Assembly (NCBI GenBank): GCA_963727625.1
Contig: CAVSHR010000004.1
Coordinates: 768,001 to 832,000 of the forward strand
Source of the DNA: an uncultured delta proteobacterium
GTDB lineage: Bacteria > Desulfobacterota > Binatia > UBA9968
Direction of reading: 5' to 3'
DNA length: 64,000 nt
The notes beneath the pieces were generated by a model that worked only from the letters and a program-made list of their open reading frames with translations, ran no database searches and was not told the origin of the DNA. A program made the translations under genes and the position numbers. Shown here in pieces: positions 17,338 to 50,178 of the stretch. Position 1 is the first letter of the stretch; each line of letters opens with the position of its first letter.

Positions 17338-17631
17338 ATGCGCTTTGAGATCATTTTGGCTCCGGAGGCGGTGGAAGATTTTCGCGCTTTGAAGGCCAAT
17401 GTTCGATCGACCGTCCGCGATGCTCTTGAAACGCATCTTCGGCACGAACCCATGAAATCGAGCCGGAGCCGGATCAAGCGGCTGCGAGGCCTGGCGCGAC
17501 CACAGTATCGACTTCGTATCGGTGAGGTTCGAATATTTTACGACGTATTAGCCGAGTCCGTTGAGGTCTTGGCTATCGTGCCCAAATCGGAGGCGGCAAT
17601 ATGGCGGGAGCAGTTCGGAAAGCCCGAATAA
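17338..17631 (+). CDS. RelE/ParE-family toxin
   Basis: IILAPEAVEDF, RIKRLRG..QYRLRIGEVRIFYDV; paired with the downstream antitoxin. Confidence 0.9.
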   Translation: MRFEIILAPEAVEDFRALKANVRSTVRDALETHLRHEPMKSSRSRIKRLRGLARPQYRLRIGEVRIFYDVLAESVEVLAIVPKSEAAIWREQFGKPE

Positions 17632-17873
17632 AAGAAGTCCCTTTATCTGAGATCAAAGACGATCTTTCACGATTTCTGCGTGAGGCGGAGAAGCAGGAGA
17701 TTGTCATAACTCGGCACGGAAAGGCTGCCGGTGTCTTGATCGGATTCGAGTCAGAGGACGACTGGTTTGACTATCGGCTTGAGAACGACTCGCGTTTCCT
17801 CGAGCGGGTCGAACGGGCTCGAAGAAGCTTAAAAGCCGGGCGGGGTATCCGGTTAGAAGATATGCCGAAGTAA
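17601..17873 (+). CDS. Phd/YefM-family antitoxin
   Basis: EVPLSEIKDDLSRFL..IVITRHGKAAGVLI. Confidence 0.9.
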   Translation: MAGAVRKARIKEVPLSEIKDDLSRFLREAEKQEIVITRHGKAAGVLIGFESEDDWFDYRLENDSRFLERVERARRSLKAGRGIRLEDMPK

Positions 17874-37508: not shown

Positions 37509-38168
37509 CTAGACCGATCTGTGTTGGAGTACGACCGGCGCAGCCAGGTCTTTTCCGACGATACCGCCGGACATGATAAATTTGAACGCTTCCTCGACCG
37601 TGAAGTCCACCTCGATAACGTCTTCGGGAGAAACGATGACCAGATACCCCGATGTCGGATTGGGAGTGGTCGGAACAAAAACGGTAAGAACCTTGCTGCC
37701 TGAACCCAGATTGAGAGTATCCGCGCGCTCGGAAGCCACGAAGCCGATGCTCCAGACCCCTTGGCGGGGGTACTGGATCAAAACGACCTGCTGAAAGCTT
37801 CGCCCCGGTCCTTGGAACGTCTCTACCACCTGTTTCGCGCTGCTATAGATGGTCTTGACCAAAGGCACTCTCAACAGAAGTGACTCGAATCGTGTCAGGA
37901 TCTGCCGACCGAGAATATTGGTTCCCACCAACCCGAGAACAAAGATCACCGAGAGCGAGAGTAACAGGTTGACAAACGGTACCAGGGGATCGGCTAATTT
38001 ATCGGCCCCCACGATGCGGAGGAATCCCGCGACCAGCGGAGCGCCGACTCCGGTAAAGATATTGAACAGAAAAGAAATCAGGATGTAGGTGATAAACAAA
38101 GGTAAAAGTATGAGCAAACCGGCGAGAAATGTGCGCCGAATAAAGTGGGGTGTCTTATCCGCAGGCAT
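37509..38168 (-). CDS. DUF502 membrane protein
   Basis: FLAGLL..P, PLVKTIY..KQ, VFVPTTPNPTSG. Confidence 0.9.
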   Translation of the reverse strand: MPADKTPHFIRRTFLAGLLILLPLFITYILISFLFNIFTGVGAPLVAGFLRIVGADKLADPLVPFVNLLLSLSVIFVLGLVGTNILGRQILTRFESLLLRVPLVKTIYSSAKQVVETFQGPGRSFQQVVLIQYPRQGVWSIGFVASERADTLNLGSGSKVLTVFVPTTPNPTSGYLVIVSPEDVIEVDFTVEEAFKFIMSGGIVGKDLAAPVVLQHRSV

Positions 38169-38264
38169 GACTTTACGCTCCTAGAGAAAGTGTGTTTCGA
38201 AATTCGGTCCGCGACTGGCATTAAGTCTAACCTGAATTTTGAAAAATTTCTCTTCTAGCCGACT

Positions 38265-38615
38265 ATGGAACCATCCGATCATAGGAAACGGCGTAAAAGA
38301 TTGAAGCGCGCCAGGGGCAATGCTTGCCGCTGGCAAACCTGAAGGGTGAACCGTGTTGCGGCGTTCCAACAACTTAAACGGCGTCGTCTCGGCGCTCCGG
38401 CCGCGCGACGAGCTGGCGAAGGACATGGGCGTGACCGCCGATCCTGTCCCGGCCTACCGAGGTTACGCCGTGGCTCACAATACCCGAAGCGAATCTGAGA
38501 GTGATGGGATCTTTGCCCGGCTACGGGATTACGGTGCGAAAATCGTCAAGCAACCGCAAAAACCCTCTGGGGGGCGGTTATTCCGGATACTTTTCCAATC
38601 GCGACGGCCATATAG
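38265..38615 (+). pseudogene. VOC-family pseudogene interrupted at an IS end
   Basis: Broken frames: LNGVV..PRDELAKD, AHNTRSE, IVKQPQK..GG; ends at catatag next to the IS. Confidence 0.75.
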
Positions 38616-39147
38616 TACTACTGTGTCATTAATGTTGGCGCACCATGTTGCAAGGGGGACAACGAGGGAGTTGTGTGATGATATCGCAAGCGAGCCTGAA
38701 GCGCAGTGTCGCGATGGAATCGGGCACGTGACGTTGCGCGCGCCGGGCTGCCGCGCGGGGTGTAATTTTGGGGTAAGCCAGGCATTTTTGATCGAGAGGA
38801 GTTTTTTTTAGAGCCGCCATGTTTAAGCCGGTCTGCCAACAAGAAGCCATAGGCGGCAATGCACAAGGTGGCGTGATGATGAAAGCCACGCCACCCCGTC
38901 CCTCGTAGTGGCTCAGGCCAAATTCCTGTTTAAGCTCCTGATAGTCCCGTTCAATGCGCCAGCGCATCTTGGTGGTCTTGACCAAATCGAGCAGCGCGGT
39001 GTCAGCGGGCAAGGTCGACAACCAATACTTGGTCGGTTCGGTTTGATCTTGAGGCCATTCGATCAACAACCATTGCTCTTGGCGTGGAGCCCTGAGGCCT
39101 TCTTGTTCCCGATGCGCAACCCGTACTCGCACCGCGGCAAAGCGCGA
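38616..39147 (-). mobile_element. IS701-family transposase 3' remnant, frameshifted
   Basis: RFAAVRVRVAHR, WLLIEWP..EPTKYWLSTLP, RWRIERDYQELKQEFGLSHYEGR, then in a shifted frame CIAAYGFL...MTQ*. Confidence 0.9.
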
Positions 39148-39340
39148 CGAATTCTACGATTGGGATTGTCACTCCTTTCACTTTATCGGCGGCAAACCCT
39201 TGGGCACCAACGACTCTATGGCGCTTTACGAAGCCATCGAACAGGAAGATTACCTGCTCGAGCTTGCCCAATCCTTAGACAAAGGGAACCACCCGGACCT
39301 GATGACAGGACTGGGGAAGGACAACCCTTTCAATGTTTAG
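39146..39340 (+). pseudogene. 3' fragment of a paralogue of the 36088-37173 VOC protein
   Basis: DEFYDWDCHSFHFIGGKPLGTNDSMALYEAIEQEDYLLELAQSLDKGNHPDLMTGLGKDNPFNV*. Confidence 0.9.
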
Positions 39341-39531
39341 ACTTAGAGTTATTGGAAACGATTAAAACGCAAGAAGCGTACTATCTCATCTGCGTCGTGA
39401 ATCCGTTCTAACATTTAGCAAGGCGTTTTAATAATAATCTTGACCACATTGGCACCAAGTCCCGGCTAATTATACTGCGTGAGCCGGTGTGAAAATCACT
39501 TTGCCGTTAAACCGCACCATGATTATTTTTC

Positions 39532-39561
39532 TTGACACAGCTTTGCCCTGGTGGTTAGAGT
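39532..39561 (+). promoter_or_regulatory. Candidate sigma70 promoter for the small Cys protein
   Basis: TTGACA-18nt-TAGAGT, flanked by inverted repeat gagccggtgtgaaa (39481) / tttcgcaccggctc (to 39609). Confidence 0.5.
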
Positions 39562-39790
39562 CTGCGTCTATTTAACTTTAACGATTTTTTTTAAATTTCG
39601 CACCGGCTCAACTTACGACTTGGTTGAATGGGTTATCGGCCAATTTAGGCGGATAATATGTTTCCAGCAGCGAAACCTTGTACGTGGGTTGCTTTACCCT
39701 TGTTAGGACGCAGCGCTTCGTTTTTCCGGACGAATGCCGCGTACGCAAACATTCTTACAGGTCAAAAAAAACACGAGGAGGGAAATCTTT

Positions 39791-40078
39791 ATGTCACTTA
39801 CTTTTCAGGTAACAGTTGACACAGGAAACCTCGGCGATCCAAATCAGAGACCGAAAGCACCGGAGGGGTCGCCTCCCATCACTGTCAGTCGATTGAACCC
39901 CAATGACTTCGTCGGAAAATTAAATTCTGGAAACGTAGCCATATACGGGTTTATTTGCAAAGATGTGAGCATTCCAAGCATAGAACAAGGTGCGGCTGAC
40001 TGCGATCCCAAATACCTTGCGGACGATGGCTGCGTTATTATTTATCTAGGTGGTACGCCTTACCGGATGTGTCCGTAA
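39791..40078 (+). CDS. Small protein with C-terminal Cys-hairpin (CVIIYLGGTPYRMCP)
   Basis: Strong RBS gaggaggg before ATG 39791; 95 aa, 4 Cys, no obvious signal peptide. Confidence 0.7.
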   Translation: MSLTFQVTVDTGNLGDPNQRPKAPEGSPPITVSRLNPNDFVGKLNSGNVAIYGFICKDVSIPSIEQGAADCDPKYLADDGCVIIYLGGTPYRMCP

Positions 40079-40201
40079 TAATAGGGTTCGGCTTCTGAGA
40101 CATTGGCGCCTCACAGGCTGCTCGGGGCCCCGGTCTAAAAATTTTACTGAATTCGAAATCGTGAGAATACTCGTCGCCGGCCGGGCATCTCCGGCTTACC
40201 A

Positions 40202-43200
40202 TTACGGTAGTGCTATGGTGATTTTGCCAAAGAGCATCCTGCCTGGTCGTAGGCTTGGGTTATTAAAGTCACGGTCGTAGAATTTGAACTTACGGTCGGT
40301 GAGATTGGTTACGCCGACCGTTACGATACCGTAACGGTCGGGCAGGCGATAATTGAGACCCGCATCCACGGTCCAAAAGGCGTCGGACCCGTTCGCACGA
40401 GCGCCATTCGTGGGAACGAATCTTCCGGCTTGATTGACGTAAGTAGATGAGAGCGTCGCACTGAACCCCGATGGATGGAAGAAGTTAACGCCTAACGGGA
40501 TTCGATAAGTCTGCAAGCGTATAGGCAAACCGGCCACCCCGTCGCTTTTAAAGTGCTCAAATTGGTATTCTGCGCGTAGGGCCCACCAACGATGTGGTGC
40601 CCAGAAAAGGTAGAGTCGGCTTAAATCCTCTTGCATATCATCTTTTCGAAGAGTTGTAGTTGCGGCGAAAATGTTTCTTTGAACCACCTGACTATTCAGG
40701 TCTCGACGCGTATATTCCGCGCCTGTGAAGAGTTCTTTTGTAAATTTCTGGTCCAGGGCAACACCGTAGTTCCACGCGGATGTGCCGTTGAAATCGTCGA
40801 AGAATTGGTTGAATCCCGCCACCTGAGTCGGTTCGATTGTTTGATCGGTGATCAGAGTTCTTTTTAAGGTTCTGAATGCCGCTGCGCGGATGGTTGTGTT
40901 CAGCCACGGATTCCACGTAACACCGAACTTTGGATTAAACTGTCGACGATCACCGACATCGGGGCTTTTCCCATTGGTGAACTCGCCACTTGCACCGAAA
41001 GTAACAGTCGCGTTCTTCAAAGGACTCCAATGGAAGTAGGCGTAAGTATTGGCTTGTTTAAGGTCCGTAGGGAACCGCGAGAAGAATAAGCTGGGAAACG
41101 GCGGAGGAAGAGCTAGCTTTGTCGCAATGTCAGAATGACCGTCGACTTTGGCATAGCCGATGCCGCTCGTCAAATTGATCGATCCTAAACGAAAGAGATG
41201 TTCAAGCTCTACGCTAGTCGCGCTCTCGGGCCTTTTCGAGTTGATATAGGTGAACGGAAACGGCAACTGCTGAACGTCGCTTCGAAAGACGACCTCTTGA
41301 TGAATCAATGAGCCTATAACTATTGAATTTGGCGAGAATGCGTGGCGCAGCCCGAAACGTCCCGTGTTTCTCTCTTCGGCATCTCTTTGCCCGGGAAAGA
41401 AATCGTCGGGAAAAAATCGTAAGCCAATGTCGCCGCTTTTAAAATTTCGGTATCGATATTCACCTTGCACACTCGTTTCTGGAGAAAGTTCCAGTTGCAA
41501 AAAAGCGTTGCCGATAGAGTCTTTCTGGTCTGCGTTCGTTCTCCAACCGTCCGTCTGAAAGTGAAATCCGCCCAAGCTAAAAGCCGCCTTCTGATAGATT
41601 CCCGAGAGCACGCCTTCACCCGCATAAGTATTATTATCTCCCCCGAGAGCAGTCGTTTGAAAATTAACCCCATTGCGATTGAACAGTGGATTGAATTCAT
41701 TGAAAGACAGCGCCGCCGGTCCTCCGGCGCTGATCAGGAACAGATTGCTTTCGGCTAAACGGGGTTGGATAGGCGTCATATTGAGAGGCTGGAGCAACTG
41801 CGACTGTAGCAATTCGCTCACTCGAGCAATCTCGTGACGTGGTAGAACCGCGTACGAGTCGGCAAGAAAACGATGGGCAGAGAAATTTATCGGGTCAGTG
41901 TTGACCGACTTCCATCCTTCCACCAGTGCCAATTGCTGGAAGCCGAGATCGCTGTAAATACGTGCTTGGCTAGCGCTCCGAGCGGCTAGGTCGGAATCAA
42001 GCTCGAGACGCGAGCGGTAGATTGCGCGATTGTCGTTCAACTCAATCGCCTTCTCCATGTCATGCAAAGCCTCGACTGGCCGGTTGGTGGTTTGCTTAGC
42101 AATCGCATCATAGAACCAGGGTGTAGGGTCTTTCGGGTCCAGTTCCTTGGCGATGGCATATTCCCGCTCATCCAATCGACCCCGTTTCTCCTCATAGTAG
42201 GCTTTGCCCAAATAACTTCGGACGATCGAGTTATTAGGAGCCAGGCTTACAGCTATCTCAATCTCTCTTCTTCCTTCTTCCAATCCGCCTTCTCGGATCT
42301 TTGCCAAACCCAGACCCAACCTCGGCAGATAATCCGACTGGTCGAACTCAATCGCTTTTGCGAAAGCAGCCTTTGCTTCATCGGTGTCGACCTGGGTGAG
42401 ATAAGCGAATCCGAGGACCGTGCGGGTTCGCGACAGGCTTGGATCCAAAGCGACCGCTTTCTTGGCCGCCTCGAGGGCTTCGTCCAAATCCGCAAATGAC
42501 ATGTGAAGTTCCGCTAGCCGGGCCCAGGCAAGCGTGTTGTTTGGATTTGATTCTACAGCCCGTTGCAAACCCGCTCGCGCGCCTTCGAGATCGAAGTTCG
42601 CCTGCTGCGCGTAAGAGAGAGCGATCAACGCAGAAGCCGACTTGGGATCTGCGGCAACTGACTTCTGCGCCAGGGCGAGTGCTTTATCCTTGTCGTTTTG
42701 AACGACCGCTATTGTCGACTGGAGCGCCAACGCTTCGCCGTAGTTCGGATCCAAGCTGAGCGCCCGATCGAGGTCCGGTCCGGCTTCATCGACGCGTCCG
42801 ACGGCGAGCAACAAAGAGGCCCGATAGGCAAAAAAACGAGGCTCCCGGAGATCGTTGGGCACGCCCCTGATGGCTTCGAAGGCGGCCTGAAAATCGCCTT
42901 TCATGTAAGACTCGAGCGAATTCCGCACCATCCCCTGCCAGCCCGGTCCGGCTGGGAACTCGTTAGGTCGTAGATAGAGGGCGGGCGGATAGTATAAGGC
43001 CCATTGAACCGCATCCCGAGGACGCACGACAGTCCGTAATACGGGAGCTTGTCCCCTCTCGGCCACAGCTGATTGGCCGTCGGTCAGGATCAGGCTCCCG
43101 GCCTGGTTCGAAGCCAATACCTTGCCTTCAAATATGGTTATCAAGGCTCTGTCGGCTTCGACTTGAACGAGGCCCTCGGTTCCCTCCACTCCTGCATTGA

Positions 43201-43609
43201 CGAAGGCGGTAATGATTTCTAGATTTCGTGGCAAACGACTGAAGAAATACAGCGCGCCTTTCACCAATTCGACGAGGGAGGTTTTTTCCTCCCGTACTCC
43301 TCCGAAGGTGATGGTGGTATCCTGATTGAGGCGCAGGACGGGTTGATTGACTAACGCCACATCCGCGCGGCTCTTCTCGCCCACTTGAACCCTGTCACCC
43401 GGGCAAAAAGTGTCATTCAAACGCACCGGCTGCCACTGGGTCTGGCCGGCGCGGCTAATCTGGACGCTCCCTTGTACCGAGACCAACTTGGCCACCCAAG
43501 GATCGCACGGCGTCGCCGCCAGCGAGAGATCAGAGGAGAGAAGACAGAAACTTGTGCACGCAATCGCCAACCATCGTGTGCGGATCATAATATCGCCACT
43601 CCTTATCAC
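40202..43609 (-). CDS. FecR-domain + TPR + TonB-receptor-like beta-barrel outer-membrane protein (NsrA-like architecture)
   Basis: Signal peptide; FecR-like VSVQGSV...GDRVQVGEKSRA...LRL, AGVEGT; many TPRs; barrel C-terminus VDAGLNY..VGVTNLTD. Confidence 0.85.
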   Translation of the reverse strand: MIRSGDIMIRTRWLAIACTSFCLLSSDLSLAATPCDPWVAKLVSVQGSVQISRAGQTQWQPVRLNDTFCPGDRVQVGEKSRADVALVNQPVLRLNQDTTITFGGVREEKTSLVELVKGALYFFSRLPRNLEIITAFVNAGVEGTEGLVQVEADRALITIFEGKVLASNQAGSLILTDGQSAVAERGQAPVLRTVVRPRDAVQWALYYPPALYLRPNEFPAGPGWQGMVRNSLESYMKGDFQAAFEAIRGVPNDLREPRFFAYRASLLLAVGRVDEAGPDLDRALSLDPNYGEALALQSTIAVVQNDKDKALALAQKSVAADPKSASALIALSYAQQANFDLEGARAGLQRAVESNPNNTLAWARLAELHMSFADLDEALEAAKKAVALDPSLSRTRTVLGFAYLTQVDTDEAKAAFAKAIEFDQSDYLPRLGLGLAKIREGGLEEGRREIEIAVSLAPNNSIVRSYLGKAYYEEKRGRLDEREYAIAKELDPKDPTPWFYDAIAKQTTNRPVEALHDMEKAIELNDNRAIYRSRLELDSDLAARSASQARIYSDLGFQQLALVEGWKSVNTDPINFSAHRFLADSYAVLPRHEIARVSELLQSQLLQPLNMTPIQPRLAESNLFLISAGGPAALSFNEFNPLFNRNGVNFQTTALGGDNNTYAGEGVLSGIYQKAAFSLGGFHFQTDGWRTNADQKDSIGNAFLQLELSPETSVQGEYRYRNFKSGDIGLRFFPDDFFPGQRDAEERNTGRFGLRHAFSPNSIVIGSLIHQEVVFRSDVQQLPFPFTYINSKRPESATSVELEHLFRLGSINLTSGIGYAKVDGHSDIATKLALPPPFPSLFFSRFPTDLKQANTYAYFHWSPLKNATVTFGASGEFTNGKSPDVGDRRQFNPKFGVTWNPWLNTTIRAAAFRTLKRTLITDQTIEPTQVAGFNQFFDDFNGTSAWNYGVALDQKFTKELFTGAEYTRRDLNSQVVQRNIFAATTTLRKDDMQEDLSRLYLFWAPHRWWALRAEYQFEHFKSDGVAGLPIRLQTYRIPLGVNFFHPSGFSATLSSTYVNQAGRFVPTNGARANGSDAFWTVDAGLNYRLPDRYGIVTVGVTNLTDRKFKFYDRDFNNPSLRPGRMLFGKITIALP

Positions 43610-43900
43610 CCCGAGAGGTGATCGTGCCGAAATCCGAAGTTGACGCTTCGACAGAGTCTCGATGACCAGCTAACTTGTTATTTCTCCGTATGCCAGCGTC
43701 CGTTCGTTGAGAGCGTGTCGGACAAGGAGTAAACTTTTGACGCAGTGAGAAAGTGTAAGCGCGAACTCGTTCCGGGCGGCGCGCTCGCGAAGAGAAAATT
43801 GACTCGATATAGAACCATGGCAGGACCGGGCATTTTTCATGACGCGTTTTCGCCTATTATTTGGAACTCAGAGGTATAACACACCGGAAGCCTGGGGTCA

Positions 43901-46153
43901 CTACTTTTCGTCTATCGGGATCACAGCCTTCCACGGCTCTTCAGGGGGATGCGCCTTATATTCCGCACACAACTTTAAATAGAAGCGCGAGAGGCCATCT
44001 TCTTCGAGAATACCGATACATTGATGAAATTTCACTGCCGCGTCGGTCCACGCGCGTACTTTGAAGGCGCCGAGGGCTTCGGAAAAAATGGCGCATGCTT
44101 TTTTTCTCTGATCATCCGCTTCTGCCGCGCGTCCTAACAATTCATAGACAACGACCGGCTGCGCCTTCCCCTTGAGCAAGAAGCTTCCCGCTTCCCGAGT
44201 CAAGAACCCCTCAGACTCGCCGACGGCTTCGCGAGACACCAAAATTTTCGTCTCGAGGTATTTGTTCAAGCCATCGAGCCGGGATACGGTATTCACCGTA
44301 TCGCCCGTGACGCCATATTCGTAGTGATCCCCGGCGCCGATATTGCCGAGGAAAAACTCGCCCGCATGGACTGCAATGCGCGTAGGAAGCTTGGCGTTCA
44401 TAGCACCCTGGTTGAACTGCCTAACGGCATCGGCGAGAGCCAATGCAGCCCCACAGGCTCGTTGACCAAGGCTAGAATCCGGCCGTTGTGCCTTCCAGAG
44501 GGCTATGATCGAATCTCCCTTGAGCTCCACGATAAGGCCGCCGTTTCGCTTGATCGGATCGAAGGTGACCTCGAAATACTTGTGCATCAAATCGCTCAAT
44601 TCACGAGGCCCCATCGTCTCCGATAGGTTCGTATACCCCGCGGCGTCGGCGAATAAACAAGCGCCGTAAACCATCTGGCCGCCGCGCCTAATATCGACGA
44701 TGTTTTGCGCCAGTTGGTTGACCACGTCACTCGGGACATAGTATCCGAGCGCGCTCCTAATATTCTGTCGCTCTTTATTTGTCTCGAAATAGCCGACTAA
44801 TACCGCGGCGACAAAACCGAGCGGCGCCTGCAGATAAAGCGGTACAATTATCGGATACCACATACTGTTGACCTTGAACTGGTACTCGGCAGCGGCGAGA
44901 TAAAAACCTCCCAAGGCCACCAAAGCAACCGCGGCCACCATCGTTCCATTGGTCCGAGAGAGCAACCCGACGACGATTCCCCATATTAGGATTAGCATTA
45001 CATAGGGCCAGTAGCTGAGCATTTTTACCGAAGCATCTTCGAGCAGATTCGCAAATGCCGTGGCGGCGATTTCGATGCCGCTGATGAACACGCCGTTGGC
45101 CTGGGAAAATACCGTATGAAAACTATCCTGCCTTTCCGCCAGCAATATTTCGGAGTAACCGACGAAAACGGTCTTTCCTGCAAGCGATAGCGGCTTGCGA
45201 CCGTGCGAATCTTGACCGAGGCGCAGAGCTTGATCGTACGGGATGGTCGTTAGGGTGCGGGGCGGACCGTAAAAATTGAGATAACGGCGATTGTTACCGC
45301 CATACATTCGCACGAGGGATTTGATTAGCCGGTAATCGTCCGCTTTGTAAGCCGATGGGCCGATGCGATCCAATTCCGTCATCATTTTTTCGGCAAGGGT
45401 CGGATCGCTTTCAAAAATTTCTCGGATGTCTCGAAGAAATCTCCCTGCGCCCCGCGTTTTAAACGCACTAGCCGCATCCCGCGGCAGCTCTCCCGCCAGC
45501 GACGGACTCACCCTCTCAATTAAATCTCTAAAATGGCCGTAAACGGACAAGGCCGAGAGTTGAAACGCGATAATAGGGAAGGTCGGCGTATCCCCCGCGC
45601 TGGTCTGAAACGCCCAATACTGGCTGACCCTGACGGGCATTCTGGGCAAAACAAACGGCGCGGTCGCGAAAGCTGCTTCTGAGATAGGTTCGATGGTCTG
45701 CAGCTTTTTCACGATCAAGTGCCCCGCCGTTGATCCAACGGTATCTAAGGAACGCACTTGTTCCGCTCTCAGAGGCTCGGCGAGCACAACGTTTTGCGCT
45801 CGGTGGATTGCTGCGGCAAGGGATGCATCTTCCGTACCGGAACGGGGCTCGATGAAATAAATATCGAGAACGATGACTCTGGCGCCTTCGCGGACGAGAT
45901 TCCTAATTAACTCGGCATGGAGCGAACGCGGCCATCGATCAGGATTCGGCGAGACCTTCAGGCGCTCGGCGGACTCTCGATCGATGCTGATAACGACGAC
46001 ATTGGCGGGCGGTTTTCTGGGGCCTCGCAATTTGAACAGCAATCCCAGTCCCACGTCTTCCTCAAGATCGTGGACGACGGGGAAAAAACTAATCAGTAAG
46101 CCGACAATCCCGATGAGCAAACCGAAGGCGGCGGCCTCTAGGAGGCGCGACAT
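43901..46153 (-). CDS. CHASE2-domain class III nucleotidyl cyclase
   Basis: VVVISID..WPRS.HA..GARVIVLD, GKTVFVG, GIEI (CHASE2); 3 TMs; LFAD, KGD, GDTVN.VSR, KGK. Confidence 0.92.
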   Translation of the reverse strand: MSRLLEAAAFGLLIGIVGLLISFFPVVHDLEEDVGLGLLFKLRGPRKPPANVVVISIDRESAERLKVSPNPDRWPRSLHAELIRNLVREGARVIVLDIYFIEPRSGTEDASLAAAIHRAQNVVLAEPLRAEQVRSLDTVGSTAGHLIVKKLQTIEPISEAAFATAPFVLPRMPVRVSQYWAFQTSAGDTPTFPIIAFQLSALSVYGHFRDLIERVSPSLAGELPRDAASAFKTRGAGRFLRDIREIFESDPTLAEKMMTELDRIGPSAYKADDYRLIKSLVRMYGGNNRRYLNFYGPPRTLTTIPYDQALRLGQDSHGRKPLSLAGKTVFVGYSEILLAERQDSFHTVFSQANGVFISGIEIAATAFANLLEDASVKMLSYWPYVMLILIWGIVVGLLSRTNGTMVAAVALVALGGFYLAAAEYQFKVNSMWYPIIVPLYLQAPLGFVAAVLVGYFETNKERQNIRSALGYYVPSDVVNQLAQNIVDIRRGGQMVYGACLFADAAGYTNLSETMGPRELSDLMHKYFEVTFDPIKRNGGLIVELKGDSIIALWKAQRPDSSLGQRACGAALALADAVRQFNQGAMNAKLPTRIAVHAGEFFLGNIGAGDHYEYGVTGDTVNTVSRLDGLNKYLETKILVSREAVGESEGFLTREAGSFLLKGKAQPVVVYELLGRAAEADDQRKKACAIFSEALGAFKVRAWTDAAVKFHQCIGILEEDGLSRFYLKLCAEYKAHPPEEPWKAVIPIDEK

Positions 46154-46797
46154 TTTGCTGCTCCCGTCTGAATCTCAAACTATGCGTTTGTGTTAAACAG
46201 CGCTCTTTCTCGGCTCCGACTCTACCGTGATTCGGTATAGTCCAAGCCGATTGCGCGCGCAAGGTTTGGTTGTCGAGAGCACAAGGTCAATATCATTTCG
46301 GAGTTGAAACAAATTTGAATCAAACACTTCATGTTTTGAGCGCGCCAATGCGACGACCATGATCGACGGCAAATTACGACCGCTCTGAAACCCACGGCGC
46401 GTCCAGCTCACCGTTAGCAGGTCGGCAGACGTGCAACAATTTGGGAGGCATTCACTGCCTCGAATTTAGCGCTTCAATATTTTGACGACCTATGGAAGTT
46501 TCTATGGGCGCGGTAAAATTGCCAAATGGCTTGAACAGAACGAAGCCCTTGAGCGGCTTGAGCTTTTTGAGCTTAAATCTTAGACGCGCGCCCTCACAGG
46601 CAACGATTAAATGAGATTTTTTCAGCCGCACTCCGGTGGAAACTTTTTCTCTACCCTTTGGTCTCTTTACTCTGGGATTGAATCTTCCATGCCGGCCGGA
46701 TTGAAATCAATTTTGGCTTCTCACTGCTCATGCCTGGGGCTATCTGCAATATCGCCTGCGCGGCCGGTATTGTGGACGACGGACTGGCGCCGAATCA

Positions 46798-47022
46798 GTC
46801 CCGGCCTACCGAGGTTACGCCGTGGCTCACAATACCCGAAGCGAATCTGAGATTGATGGGATCTTTGCCCGGCTACAGGATTACGGTGCGAACATCGTCA
46901 AGCAACCGCAAAAAATCCTCTGGGGCGGTTATTCCGGAAATTTTTCCGATCTCGACAGCCATATAGGAGAGATCGCTTACAATCCGTTTTGGATCATCCG
47001 GACGGATGGCCGCGTGCGATAA
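46798..47022 (+). pseudogene. VOC-family 3' fragment; direct repeat of 38446-38615
   Basis: Near-identical sequence gtcccggcctaccgagg...catatag, continuing into EIAYNPFW. Confidence 0.85.
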
Positions 47023-47063
47023 AGAAGGATTGATCCTAGGACAGAAGATTTTCACGGCGGAGG

Positions 47064-47594
47064 TTAGTTCCAAAAATCAAGCTGCGGGATGGCCGTTCGA
47101 ATGAGTTGCTCGGGCCATTCGATCACCGGCCCCGGCCAGGGCAGATGAAGTATCTGGTCGAAAAGGAGATCAAAAAAAATAAACGTCGCCAACGTCAAGC
47201 CGATCGAGATCAGCCACCGCTCCCGGGCTTGCAATTTGAGGTAGAGAAACGTGTAAAGCGGCACCGCGACAAAGAAGCCGAGCAGCCAAATACAGAAAAA
47301 AAATCCCAGCAGCCAGGCGAAAAACCTGCCGGCCTTGGCCACAACGACCTTGGAGCTCATGCTCAAGTCAACTTGTAAATCTCCCGTGTCTTCCTTCGGT
47401 CGCACGGCGACCGAGCGCGATTGATAGATTTCCAGCGCCAGCTGAATCATCGATAGAATCATGACGGGGATACCGACGATCCAGGGAAACAATTTCGTCG
47501 ATAGTGGCCAGTCCCACGCCGATAGCACCGCATAGGTTGAAAAAACAACGATGGCCAGCGTAAAAAACATTCGGGCCCGGAATTTCATCATCAA
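47064..47594 (-). CDS. tctB: Tripartite tricarboxylate transporter small subunit
   Basis: 4 TMs, FP..., LLGF...L..PWPG; follows tctA. Confidence 0.85.
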   Translation of the reverse strand: MMMKFRARMFFTLAIVVFSTYAVLSAWDWPLSTKLFPWIVGIPVMILSMIQLALEIYQSRSVAVRPKEDTGDLQVDLSMSSKVVVAKAGRFFAWLLGFFFCIWLLGFFVAVPLYTFLYLKLQARERWLISIGLTLATFIFFDLLFDQILHLPWPGPVIEWPEQLIRTAIPQLDFWN

Positions 47595-49078
47595 CCCACC
47601 GCGGAAAATTTCCGCGCTTTTCTTTCCTGCCAGGTGCTATAGACCACGGTGGCTATGGTAATCAAAATGATCACGATGACGAGAGGACGCATCATCCATC
47701 CAAAACCGTAGGCCTTGACAGAGATGACCGCATAACGCTCGATGAGCGTACCCAGGAGAAAACCCAACAGCAGCGGCGGCCTCGGCCACCCGGATCGTTT
47801 CATAATCCAGCCCAAGCCCCCGATGATTAGCAGCGTAATGAGATCACCCATGCTTGCGCTCGCCTGGAATGCCGCCAGAAACACGACGACCATAACCAGC
47901 GGCGCCAGGATTTGAATGCGCACGGCGGATAGCTTGGCCAGCTGGTTGGTAAACAGCAGCGCAATCCCCGTGGCCAAGATGTTGGCAATCGCGGTGCTCC
48001 AGACGATCGCATAGGTGACATCGAGATGCTTCGTGAGCATTTCCGGACCGGGTTGGATGCCGTGGATCAAAAAAGCTCCGATCAAGAGGGCCATGGAGGC
48101 GCTTCCCGGCACTCCGAATGCAAGCGTCGGTACGAGTGCACCCCCTTGTTTCGCGTTGTTGGCGCTTTCCGGAGCGATGACCCCACGAACGTCGCCCTTG
48201 CCGAATGTCAACGCCGCGTCCTTGCAGGTCTGCCGCGCGTGGCCATAGGCCAGCCAGTCCACGACGGCCGACCCGAGGCCGGGTATAATGCCGATCCAGG
48301 TGCCCAAAAAGCTGCAACGCAGCATCAACCAGCGGTGCGTATAGACGTCGCGCATTCCCTGCCCGACCCCTTTCATGGCAGACTTCGGCACGCTGCTGAT
48401 TTTAGAGCCTTCGATGACCATGTCCGCGAGTTCCGGAATGGCGAAGAGTCCGAGGCTCACAACGATGATATTCAATCCGTCGATGAGATAGATCGTGTCA
48501 AAGGTCCAGCGCAGCAGGCCCTCCTGCTTGTCGGTACCGATCATGGCCAGGAGCAGTCCCAGCCCCCCCGCGATAATTCCTTTGAGTGGAACGTTGCCGC
48601 TTAAAATCGCGACCATGGAAATTCCCATGATTCCCAAAGCGAACAACTCGGGCGCCGCGAAGTACAAGACCACCGGCTTTAAGACGGGAATCAACAAGCC
48701 TAGGCAGGCAGCGCCAATGATGCCGCCCAACATGGAGGACAGGTAGGCCGCGCCAAAGGCGCGACCCGCCTCGCCCTTACGCGCCATGGGGTGGCCGTCT
48801 AATATCGTAGCTTGAGAGCCGACGGTGCCGGGCACAGCAAACAAAACCGACGGGATCGTGTCCGTCGTCGTCGGCACGGCTGTTAATGCAACGAGCATGG
48901 CGATGGCCGAGGTGCGATCCATTTCGAAGGTAAACGGCAGAAGAATAGCCACGCCGACAACTCCGCCAAGGCCCGGAATCGCGCCGAGCGCCATGCCGAT
49001 CAGCACTCCGATAACTAAAAACATCATTCGGTCAGGGCTCATGAGAGCGCCAAACCCTTGCGCCATCGCTTCTAGCAC
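47591..49078 (-). CDS. tctA: Tripartite tricarboxylate transporter permease
   Basis: GAIPGL, VPGT..ATILDGHPMA, GVIAPESANNA, GIQPGP. Confidence 0.95.
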   Translation of the reverse strand: MLEAMAQGFGALMSPDRMMFLVIGVLIGMALGAIPGLGGVVGVAILLPFTFEMDRTSAIAMLVALTAVPTTTDTIPSVLFAVPGTVGSQATILDGHPMARKGEAGRAFGAAYLSSMLGGIIGAACLGLLIPVLKPVVLYFAAPELFALGIMGISMVAILSGNVPLKGIIAGGLGLLLAMIGTDKQEGLLRWTFDTIYLIDGLNIIVVSLGLFAIPELADMVIEGSKISSVPKSAMKGVGQGMRDVYTHRWLMLRCSFLGTWIGIIPGLGSAVVDWLAYGHARQTCKDAALTFGKGDVRGVIAPESANNAKQGGALVPTLAFGVPGSASMALLIGAFLIHGIQPGPEMLTKHLDVTYAIVWSTAIANILATGIALLFTNQLAKLSAVRIQILAPLVMVVVFLAAFQASASMGDLITLLIIGGLGWIMKRSGWPRPPLLLGFLLGTLIERYAVISVKAYGFGWMMRPLVIVIILITIATVVYSTWQERKARKFSAVG

Positions 49079-49134
49079 ATGTCACCCCTCAACCGTCGCC
49101 AATCCTCGTCGATAGACCGTCGATAAAATCCTGG

Positions 49135-50178
49135 CTATTTTTTCTTGCCCCCGCCAAAAACCTCCGAAACGATCTCGAACATATCGGGCGAGGGATGGAT
49201 GTCTTTATTCACAACTTCTTGAAGCTCTTTTCCCGGCATGGGATCGACCGGACGGTGCAGCTTCTTGGCTTCTGCCCGAAACTTCTCATCTGCCAACGTT
49301 TTGTCGAAGGCGTCGCGCAGAGTCTGCACTGATTCAGCCGGCACGTCCTGAGGTAGAAAATAGGGGCGCCCGTAGTGTTGAAAGAACAATGTCGCCTCGG
49401 CGATTTCCTTGCCCTTATTACTATTGGCCAACTCCTTGAGCGTCGGCACGTCGGGAAAATCCTTGTCTCTGCCACCCTTGAGAGTGCCGGCCTGAGCAAC
49501 CACGACGAGCTTGCCCGCCTTGTACATATCGCCCAGCTGATCGTAGAAAGAAGATTTGGTGTTGCTCGAGGTGTCCACCTCCCCCTGCCGAAGCGCGAGA
49601 CTGTATTGACGCGCGCCGGGATAAGCCATCACCATGTCGAACAGCTTGTATCCGGTCACCTTTTCGATAAGGCGGCCGAGAATGAAGCCGGTGGATTGCC
49701 GCCCGCTCACCCCTACGGTCGCAAGCTTGCCGGATTTGTGAATCGCTTCGATGCTCTTGTAACGATCCGGCCTGGAGTAGAAAAGCGCGTTTTCCACCAC
49801 GATCGCGCCGACCGCGTGCATCTTGCCAAAATCGAATCTGGCGCGTTTGTCTTTGATGCCCTGATAGTGCCAGACGCCCCAGTTGATTTGTTCCATAGTC
49901 GTGCCATCGCGCCGCGCCTGCTCATAGAGGTAATTCGCTGCGACCAACCCGCCGCCGCCGGGCATGTTTTCCACGATGATCTTCGGCTTGCCGGGAATGT
50001 GACGCACCAGATGGCGCGCCAACAGCCGCGTATAGGTGTCGTTGCCGCCGCCGGGCGAGGAAGAAACGATGATGCGCACCGTCTTGCCCTGGTAAAATTG
50101 GCCGAACGCATTCGGCGAGAGCCCGAAACTCACCATACCGGCGAATCCCAGAACCAGTGAAACATTTCTCAATTTCAT
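49135..50178 (-). CDS. tctC: Tripartite tricarboxylate transporter binding protein (Bug/TctC)
   Basis: Signal peptide; PGGGND..R, VENMPGGGG, PDVPT. Confidence 0.9.
   Translation of the reverse strand: MKLRNVSLVLGFAGMVSFGLSPNAFGQFYQGKTVRIIVSSSPGGGNDTYTRLLARHLVRHIPGKPKIIVENMPGGGGLVAANYLYEQARRDGTTMEQINWGVWHYQGIKDKRARFDFGKMHAVGAIVVENALFYSRPDRYKSIEAIHKSGKLATVGVSGRQSTGFILGRLIEKVTGYKLFDMVMAYPGARQYSLALRQGEVDTSSNTKSSFYDQLGDMYKAGKLVVVAQAGTLKGGRDKDFPDVPTLKELANSNKGKEIAEATLFFQHYGRPYFLPQDVPAESVQTLRDAFDKTLADEKFRAEAKKLHRPVDPMPGKELQEVVNKDIHPSPDMFEIVSEVFGGGKKK

Follow-up and report, generated by a model that had tools for sequence, protein, structure and literature searches.

A stretch of 64,000 nucleotides (nt) from an uncultured delta proteobacterium of the Binatia (assembly GCA_963727625.1, contig CAVSHR010000004.1, positions 768,001 to 832,000; hereafter, the window) contains a block of three genes encoding a CHASE2 class III nucleotidyl cyclase, a FecR-TPR-barrel outer-membrane protein and a small protein with a cysteine-bracketed hairpin at its C-terminus. 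The cyclase and the barrel protein form a pair of the NsrA/CyaK kind known from Sinorhizobium meliloti. The new part is the third gene beside this pair: genes for proteins ending in similar hairpins recur just after the barrel genes of related loci, pointing to a third partner that has not been described. We estimate at roughly 45% the probability that the three genes form a trans-envelope cyclic nucleotide (cNMP) module of the NsrA/CyaK kind, located on an acquired-looking block, with the small gene encoding the module's own partner protein. For CHASE2 sensing and signal transfer by NsrA-like barrels, the only reported signal is a plant protein in one symbiont. A partner protein encoded next to such receptors in about half of the cases or more would offer something concrete to test as the missing ligand, plug or co-receptor. 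The family concerned is one of thousands (4396 relatives of the barrel protein at E <= 1e-5 among 7999 candidates scored), and the proposal would also give a name to a group of small and mid-sized proteins rich in Cys that lie outside Pfam and NCBIfam.

Related loci were collected by scanning one genome per species with an alignment of the barrel protein, and 706 of the 726 pattern matches proved to be relatives; from these, the 80 best were kept as 74 loci (L-numbers below). A Cys-pair ending was defined as two Cys residues 7-16 residues apart, with the last one no more than 6 residues from the end of the protein. Such an ending was found in 28 of 69 called genes of 50-400 amino acids (aa) whose start lies in the 600 nt behind the barrel stop codon and in 31 of 917 called genes elsewhere in the loci (odds ratio 19.5, p = 1.6e-19), the gene calls being crude. 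By this rule, 27 of the 53 usable loci were positive, a locus being usable when the 3' end of the barrel gene was complete and followed by 400 nt or more of sequence. An earlier note on this DNA had named recurrent Cys-hairpin open reading frames (ORFs) beside receptor/cyclase pairs as the test of its proposal, and they were indeed found by motif as well: among 18 short ORFs in the 74 loci with the relaxed motif C-x4-7-GG-x4-7-C near the end, 6 belonged to the 605 short ORFs whose start lay no more than 600 nt past the barrel stop and 12 to the 19202 elsewhere (p = 1e-5). A loose version of the Cys-pair rule applied to raw ORFs (46/546 vs 501/8831, p = 0.01) was noisy and was therefore replaced by the tests on called genes.

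The third genes of the 53 usable loci were sorted into classes by eye. A leaderless hairpin protein of 66-100 aa, encoded convergently or co-directionally, was recognised in 11 loci. A small form of 108-153 aa with a signal peptide or a lipobox-like start and the same kind of hairpin was present in 7 loci, and a larger Cys-rich protein of 200-360 aa, in most cases with a signal peptide, in 21. Two loci (L015 and L018) had a phosphodiesterase at this place, and 12 were left as unclear, as no candidate could be recognised in them. Many of the larger proteins carry a Cys-flanked GG or NG hairpin at the end or just after the signal peptide. A BLAST search joined some of the leaderless and signal-peptide forms (L025 and L042 with L074; L001 with four larger proteins), and the two forms can be homologous. 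A hidden Markov model (HMM) of the leaderless set detected 14 ORFs among 21229, all of them just after a barrel gene and two of them outside the seed. Its profile also found 44 further hypothetical proteins of 75-91 aa in a large protein collection, most belonging to one well-conserved subfamily. Pfam gave no match for 21 small and 22 larger third-gene proteins, and NCBIfam gave none for 39 third-gene proteins beyond one stray weak hit. In addition, tandem pairs of diverged leaderless genes, convergent with the barrel gene, were observed in L003 (13439-14005), L006 (13415-14037) and L007 (13603-14281), a pattern typical of fast-evolving specificity determinants.

The pairing with a cyclase is likewise conserved. 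A CHASE2 gene was found beside the barrel gene in 57 of the 74 loci: a full-length cyclase relative lies directly upstream on the same strand in 36, a CHASE2 protein is encoded downstream in 17, and 4 show another arrangement. In 2 loci CHASE2 was absent from the flanks, and in 15 the flanks were too short to judge. A tblastn search with the window cyclase gave a match in 58 of the 74 loci. A Pfam scan of 12 loci (148 proteins) revealed little else conserved around the pair. Note that genes for CRP-like regulators (cNMP_binding and HTH_Crp_2 domains) are located divergently upstream of the cyclase gene in L025 (6498-7205), L042 (6548-7300) and L040 (6183-6917), and a gene for a cNMP-binding patatin-like phospholipase takes this place next to the cyclase gene in L074 (5555-7453). 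The phosphodiesterase genes that follow the barrel gene in L015 (10089-11579) and L018 (5643-6431) encode a metallo-beta-lactamase fold; a match to the class-II cyclic AMP (cAMP) phosphodiesterase model was obtained for the L018 protein, and a weak one to an anti-Pycsar Apyc1 model for the L015 protein.

Within the window, all three genes were verified at the locus from the ORFs, the Pfam domains and the Shine-Dalgarno-like sequence GAGGAGGG of the small gene, as the earlier note had read them. In the barrel protein, Pfam detected a FecR domain at residues 72-164 (E 2.6e-11), many TPR models at about 260-530 and weak C-terminal outer-membrane barrel models. The AlphaFold2 model, based on an alignment of 97 relatives, had a mean predicted local distance difference test (pLDDT) value of 81 and a predicted template modelling score (pTM) of 0.76. 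It starts with a signal helix and contains a beta (FecR) domain at residues 40-192 (nt 43034-43492), a TPR solenoid at residues 224-601 (nt 41807-42940) and a barrel of about 22 strands at residues 647-1134 (nt 40208-41671), so that FecR, TPR and C-terminal barrel are combined in one secreted polypeptide, as in NsrA-type proteins. The best 120 relatives are 58-80% identical in the barrel part, and their named sources include Binatia, Thermodesulfobacteriota, Zixibacteria and others.

A Foldseek comparison with the PDB showed that the barrel is nearest to the TonB-dependent transporters FpvA, FhuE, OprC and FecA, with E values of 1e-16 to 1e-13 and target TM-scores of about 0.5, and has the 22 strands of this class. 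No Plug domain was present among the 19 Pfam hits of the protein (E <= 0.01), the N-terminus being made up of FecR and TPR; thus, the protein combines, in one chain, periplasmic TPR and FecR parts with a transporter-like barrel devoid of a plug. The FecA-FecR-FecI and FpvA-FpvR systems have the nearest barrel fold, and a FecR-family domain helps there, too, to pass an outer-membrane event inward. However, FecR of these TonB-dependent transducers is part of an inner-membrane anti-sigma factor and their output is an extracytoplasmic function sigma factor, whereas in the window FecR is fused to a barrel without a plug domain and the output is a cyclase. The linker between the solenoid and the barrel (residues 603-643, nt 41681-41803) is invariant in the family and has low model confidence. 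Residues 916-943 (nt 40799-40882) are also among the most conserved of the family and the least confident of the model. The linker contains a hydrophobic run, GG and a second hydrophobic run and in this resembles the hairpins of the partner proteins. Both segments may be self-plugging or partner-binding.

The cyclase contains a CHASE2 domain at residues 27-396 (nt 44966-46075, Pfam E 2e-28) and a Guanylate_cyc catalytic domain at residues 499-670 (nt 44144-44659, Pfam E 3.9e-13). Its parts follow in the order N-terminal transmembrane helix, periplasmic CHASE2 domain, transmembrane bundle, cytoplasmic cyclase domain and a C-terminal tail of about 80 aa, the transmembrane segments having been read from the sequence. 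Judged by eye, stretches of the cyclase resemble the consensus of the metal-binding and transition-state motifs. The cyclase gene precedes the barrel gene on the same (-) strand with a gap of 291 nt (43610-43900); in related loci of the same order this gap is mostly about 35-270 nt and in a few cases 400-1070 nt. Reading of the gap and an Rfam scan revealed nothing in it, and Rfam gave 0 matches over the whole of 38000-47500.

NsrA was reportedly defined in Garnerone 2018. When scanned with Pfam, it appeared as FecR, TPR and a weak barrel, and CyaK as CHASE2 and a cyclase domain. The two genes are adjacent in S. meliloti, as their counterparts are in the window, but in the reverse order, nsrA preceding cyaK. 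A tblastn search with the barrel protein against plasmids gave no match at E <= 1e-10; weaker matches were found on pSymB of S. meliloti, one of residues 10-202, covering the FecR part, to the annotated nsrA gene (26% identity, E 4e-4) and one of barrel residues 884-1112 to a pSymB record (26%, E 1e-3), so that homology by sequence is tentative. Because of the shared architecture and the adjacency, the cyclase/barrel pair is a known kind of system, in agreement with the assignment made earlier. In the two papers concerned, NsrA is described as a signal-perception protein without cargo, an outer-membrane barrel by way of which uL2, a plant protein, stimulates the CHASE2 cyclases (CyaK, CyaD1 and CyaD2) to make more cAMP, which is then read by Clr (PMC13001267, PMC7529298). 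The ligands of NsrA are better defined than the earlier note had stated, uL2 being reported as a signal. The CRP-like genes beside some related loci recall the part that Clr plays in the rhizobial system, as far as that source describes it (PMC13001267), whereas the window itself contains no CRP gene.

A similar gene set is known from Campylobacterota, where genes for CHASE2 cyclases are reported to occur together with those for a FecR-domain outer-membrane protein, a TPR protein and a cAMP phosphodiesterase and to have been spread by horizontal transfer (PMC9239204). The phosphodiesterase genes after the barrel in L015 and L018 correspond to this cluster; in contrast, FecR, TPR and barrel form one polypeptide in the window, and the accessible part of the same source makes no mention of a hairpin or Cys-rich third protein. 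More generally, no such third partner was found in the openly accessible literature on the pair (the Sinorhizobium and Campylobacterota papers), subscription papers and supplements being outside this scope.

The small gene, whose true coordinates were determined as 39791..40078 (+), is convergent with the barrel gene, and the two stop codons are 123 nt apart. The encoded protein ends in C81-x5-GG-x5-C94 (nt 40031-40072). An exhaustive search over 1.84 billion representatives revealed two relatives, of 91 aa (49% identity, E 2.5e-17) and 93 aa (37%, E 2e-5), because of which the gene is regarded as real; a word-indexed search returned only the protein itself. A third match, of 915 aa, is repeat-rich and Cys-rich, was read as eukaryotic and was taken as compositional. 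In the three-way alignment C81, C94 and GG are invariant, and one relative lacks both C55 and C70, as would be expected of two separate Cys pairs. As for the candidate promoter of the earlier note, promoter-like sites exist upstream of the gene, but their number does not exceed chance (3 vs 1.4 +/- 1.3 in shuffles). A 15-nt inverted repeat (39480-39494 / 39596-39610, 93% complementary, 101 nt apart) flanks the better of the sites.

No Pfam or NCBIfam family was found for the small protein. Its AlphaFold2 model, with a helix at residues 37-45 and a hairpin at 82-86/89-93, was poor (pLDDT 47) and thus not suitable for a fold search. The ESM Atlas gave no informative neighbour for the window protein or for an L006-type protein, a PDB sequence search with the small-protein profile gave 0 matches at E <= 1, and a profile search of the genome contigs with the small-protein family found nothing. 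Co-folding of the small protein with barrel residues 231-1135 gave a score of 0.00, but controls were not run, so that this is no verdict and nothing was drawn from it. Enzymes of ribosomally synthesized and post-translationally modified peptides (RiPPs) or bacteriocins, a leader protease and a dedicated exporter were absent from the window, and none was conserved in the 12 loci scanned. A RiPP precursor was accordingly rejected as the identity of the small protein, with no enzymes nearby and with the C-terminal hairpin as the conserved part.

Does the small gene of the window belong to the hairpin set? By its place beside the barrel stop and by its terminal motif it does. In a maximum-likelihood tree of 43 barrel proteins, obtained by a quick search, that of the window formed a clade with those of L001, L003, L006 and L072 (Shimodaira-Hasegawa-like approximate likelihood ratio test, 96), and like the window, L003, L006 and L072 have leaderless hairpin genes convergent with the barrel gene. 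When 1246 window ORFs were scored with an HMM made from 12 locus proteins, the small ORF ranked first, but with an E value of 0.69. No significant similarity to the other hairpin proteins was obtained, and therefore the membership of the small protein rests on position, size, orientation and hairpin pattern. The gene was filed as a positional and structural counterpart of the hairpin set, not as a proven homologue.

By analogy with S. meliloti NsrA, a stimulus at the barrel would be relayed through the TPR and FecR parts to the periplasmic CHASE2 domain, and the relay would raise cAMP or cyclic GMP (cGMP). The nucleotide would then be sensed by a CRP-like regulator or some other cNMP-binding protein whose gene lies elsewhere in the genome, as the S. 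meliloti pathway suggests. The small gene would encode the system's own partner protein, whose Cys-bracketed C-terminal beta-hairpin could be the element recognised by the barrel protein, stapled by a disulfide if the periplasm is reached. Recognition might take place at the TPR groove, at the conserved linker or in the barrel lumen, and binding of the hairpin might set or gate the relay to the cyclase, the small protein being a plug, a co-receptor or a ligand that the cell makes for itself.

A number of results weigh against this proposal, in addition to the crude gene calls, the classification by eye and the 12 unclear loci mentioned above. The main difficulty is the route that would bring the leaderless form to the periplasmic domains: neither the window protein nor those of the 11 loci have an export signal, no Sec, Tat or lipoprotein signal and no hydrophobic N-terminal segment was read in the window protein, and no exporter was conserved beside the hairpin genes in the 12 loci scanned. 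The small protein has only two detectable relatives. An hhalign comparison with the locus hairpin proteins gave a probability of 26% over 19 hairpin columns, tblastn with the small protein found no match in the 74 loci, an HMM of its family reached a best E value of 3.2 over the same loci, and an HMM of 26 database hairpin proteins detected nothing in the window. Moreover, no hairpin gene was found among 161 ORFs of the S. meliloti nsrA-cyaK locus, and therefore the third gene is not needed for the known system. The 8 rule hits at that locus were Arg-rich frames and were judged spurious by eye.

The earlier note had suggested that the small protein is the ligand or the output of a self-contained cell-cell signalling module. 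The recurrent association of hairpin genes with the barrel genes supports this idea in part, but a role as ligand, as output or between cells is hypothetical, and the protein has no signal peptide. A bolder form of this idea is that the FecR-TPR-barrel/CHASE2 modules of many uncultured Gram-negative lineages encode their own released, disulfide-stapled hairpin ligands, which would be read back by the receptor and drive cAMP or cGMP synthesis in peptide-based self or kin signalling, with duplicated, fast-evolving genes setting specificity. We consider this doubtful. In the RRNPP systems of Firmicutes, a TPR receptor is likewise encoded beside a small fast-evolving peptide gene, which is often on the opposite strand and sometimes leaderless. 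However, RRNPP receptors are cytoplasmic and take up imported peptides, whereas the TPR part in the window is periplasmic and tied to an outer-membrane barrel.

Large barrels that work together with a small periplasmic protein or lipoprotein from a gene of its own are known from LptD/LptE and from Slam; Slam combines TPR and barrel and has its partner genes as neighbours. Neither system showed any sequence or profile similarity in the Pfam and NCBIfam scans, the barrel sizes differ, and neither is tied to a cyclase. With LptD/LptE as a model, the hairpin protein could be a structural subunit inserted from the periplasm into the 22-strand barrel, in place of the missing plug and in the manner of LptE in LptD, and signalling could occur by displacement of the plug, with no diffusible signal. 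This alternative survives best, although we regard it as rather unlikely. It agrees with a TonB-dependent transporter-like barrel that matches no Plug model and with the signal peptides of most third-gene products, some of which have lipobox-like ends (L001, L032), and the co-directional position of third genes 10-160 nt after the barrel gene fits co-translation of subunits. But the leaderless forms, including that of the window, cannot reach the periplasm by a known route, and the window gene is convergent with its own ribosome-binding site, so that its dosage is uncoupled from that of the barrel gene. Besides, the invariant linker 603-643 and the loop 916-943 could plug the barrel themselves, and NsrA functions although its locus has no third gene of this kind.

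The lack of a signal peptide in every leaderless form and of an exporter conserved nearby would be expected of a cytoplasmic protein. Such a protein could act on the catalytic domain of the cyclase or on its tail of about 80 aa, which has no assigned role, or could itself be the output, with Cys pairs binding a metal or sensing redox state instead of making disulfides. This is unlikely in our opinion: homologues with a Sec signal carry the same hairpin (L074 compared with L025 and L042; L022, matched by the leaderless HMM at 2.6e-7), and the third gene follows the barrel gene, not the cyclase gene, even where the CHASE2 gene is elsewhere (L054, L062).

It is similarly improbable that the 95-aa gene is a chance neighbour, unrelated to the pair or carried as cargo of a mobile block, with a coincidental Cys hairpin. 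The missing similarity to other hairpin proteins and the small number of relatives would fit this, as would the distance of 640 nt to a transposase-like fragment, the lowest third-position GC content (GC3) of the block and the background of 3-6% for the generic Cys-pair rule. Against it stand the low prior for such a gene at this position, given 31 of 917 elsewhere, the leaderless convergent hairpin gene at the same place in three of the four closest barrel relatives and the top rank of the window ORF against an independent HMM. The notion that the barrel protein is a Slam-like translocon, with the hairpin proteins as cargo, the hairpin as export signal and the cyclase monitoring or regulating export, is very improbable, since the description of NsrA as a protein without cargo in the portions of the papers cited above, the tight CHASE2 pairing, which fits signalling better, and the leaderless forms, which would not reach the translocon, outweigh the analogy of a TPR and barrel protein encoded next to cargo-like secreted, Cys-rich, fast-evolving proteins. 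The preferred reading remains that of a cNMP module with its own partner protein.

Table 1. Features of the three-gene block and its borders (window coordinates).
Feature	Position	Strand	Description and basis
Left direct-repeat copy	38436..38615	+	About 180 nt; frameshifted fragment, 3' part of a glyoxalase/VOC gene
Transposase-like open frame	38629..39153	-	Just inside the left repeat; by our own reading, C-terminal part of a DDE transposase
Second promoter-like site	39449-39476		Upstream of the small gene; consensus scan
Promoter-like site	39532..39561	+	TTGACA, 18-nt spacer, TAGAGT; consensus scan; 230 nt 5' of the small gene
Shine-Dalgarno-like sequence	39775..39782	+	GAGGAGGG, 8 nt 5' of the ATG of the small gene
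Small leaderless protein gene	39791..40078	+	95 aa, four Cys; ORF, relatives
FecR-TPR-barrel outer-membrane protein gene	40202..43609	-	1135 aa; Pfam and AlphaFold2
CHASE2 class III nucleotidyl cyclase gene	43901..46153	-	750 aa; Pfam CHASE2 and Guanylate_cyc
Right direct-repeat copy	46788..46966	+	Within ORF 46705-47022, C-terminal half of a glyoxalase/VOC protein

The three genes lie between two direct repeats (Table 1), as had been predicted for the block. The copies are 89-95% identical, with 127 nt at 95% and 45 nt at 89%, as determined by repeat search and alignment. The ORF that contains the right copy matches the Pfam Glyoxalase model (E 3.4e-4, profile positions 61-115 of 121). The GC3 values of the three genes are 0.45, 0.58 and 0.62, compared with 0.65-0.80 in the neighbouring genes. 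Because of the flanking repeats and the lower GC3, the block looks horizontally acquired. It contains no integrase gene. The transposase label of the frame next to the left repeat is unconfirmed, as no Pfam model matched it at E <= 0.001. Another open frame just inside the block (39053-39340) reads as the C-terminal end of a protein, without start context and without a Pfam match, and is probably a gene remnant.

The expected absence of a CRP-like gene from the window was confirmed in that no cNMP_binding or Crp model matched any of the 60 window ORFs scanned. A CRP-site consensus gave 13 matches in the window against 14.6 expected, none of them at the promoters of the module. A TctB/TctA/TctC tricarboxylate transporter operon (47064-50178) directly adjoins the cyclase gene. 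S. meliloti pSymB, too, has an annotated TctABC operon (L075, 1078-4243) upstream of nsrA, at a distance of about 2.7 kb, a likeness that may be due to chance. Farther away in the window, an ORF for a ParE-like toxin and one for a Phd/YefM-like antitoxin overlap at 17338-17870, in an order unusual for such pairs.

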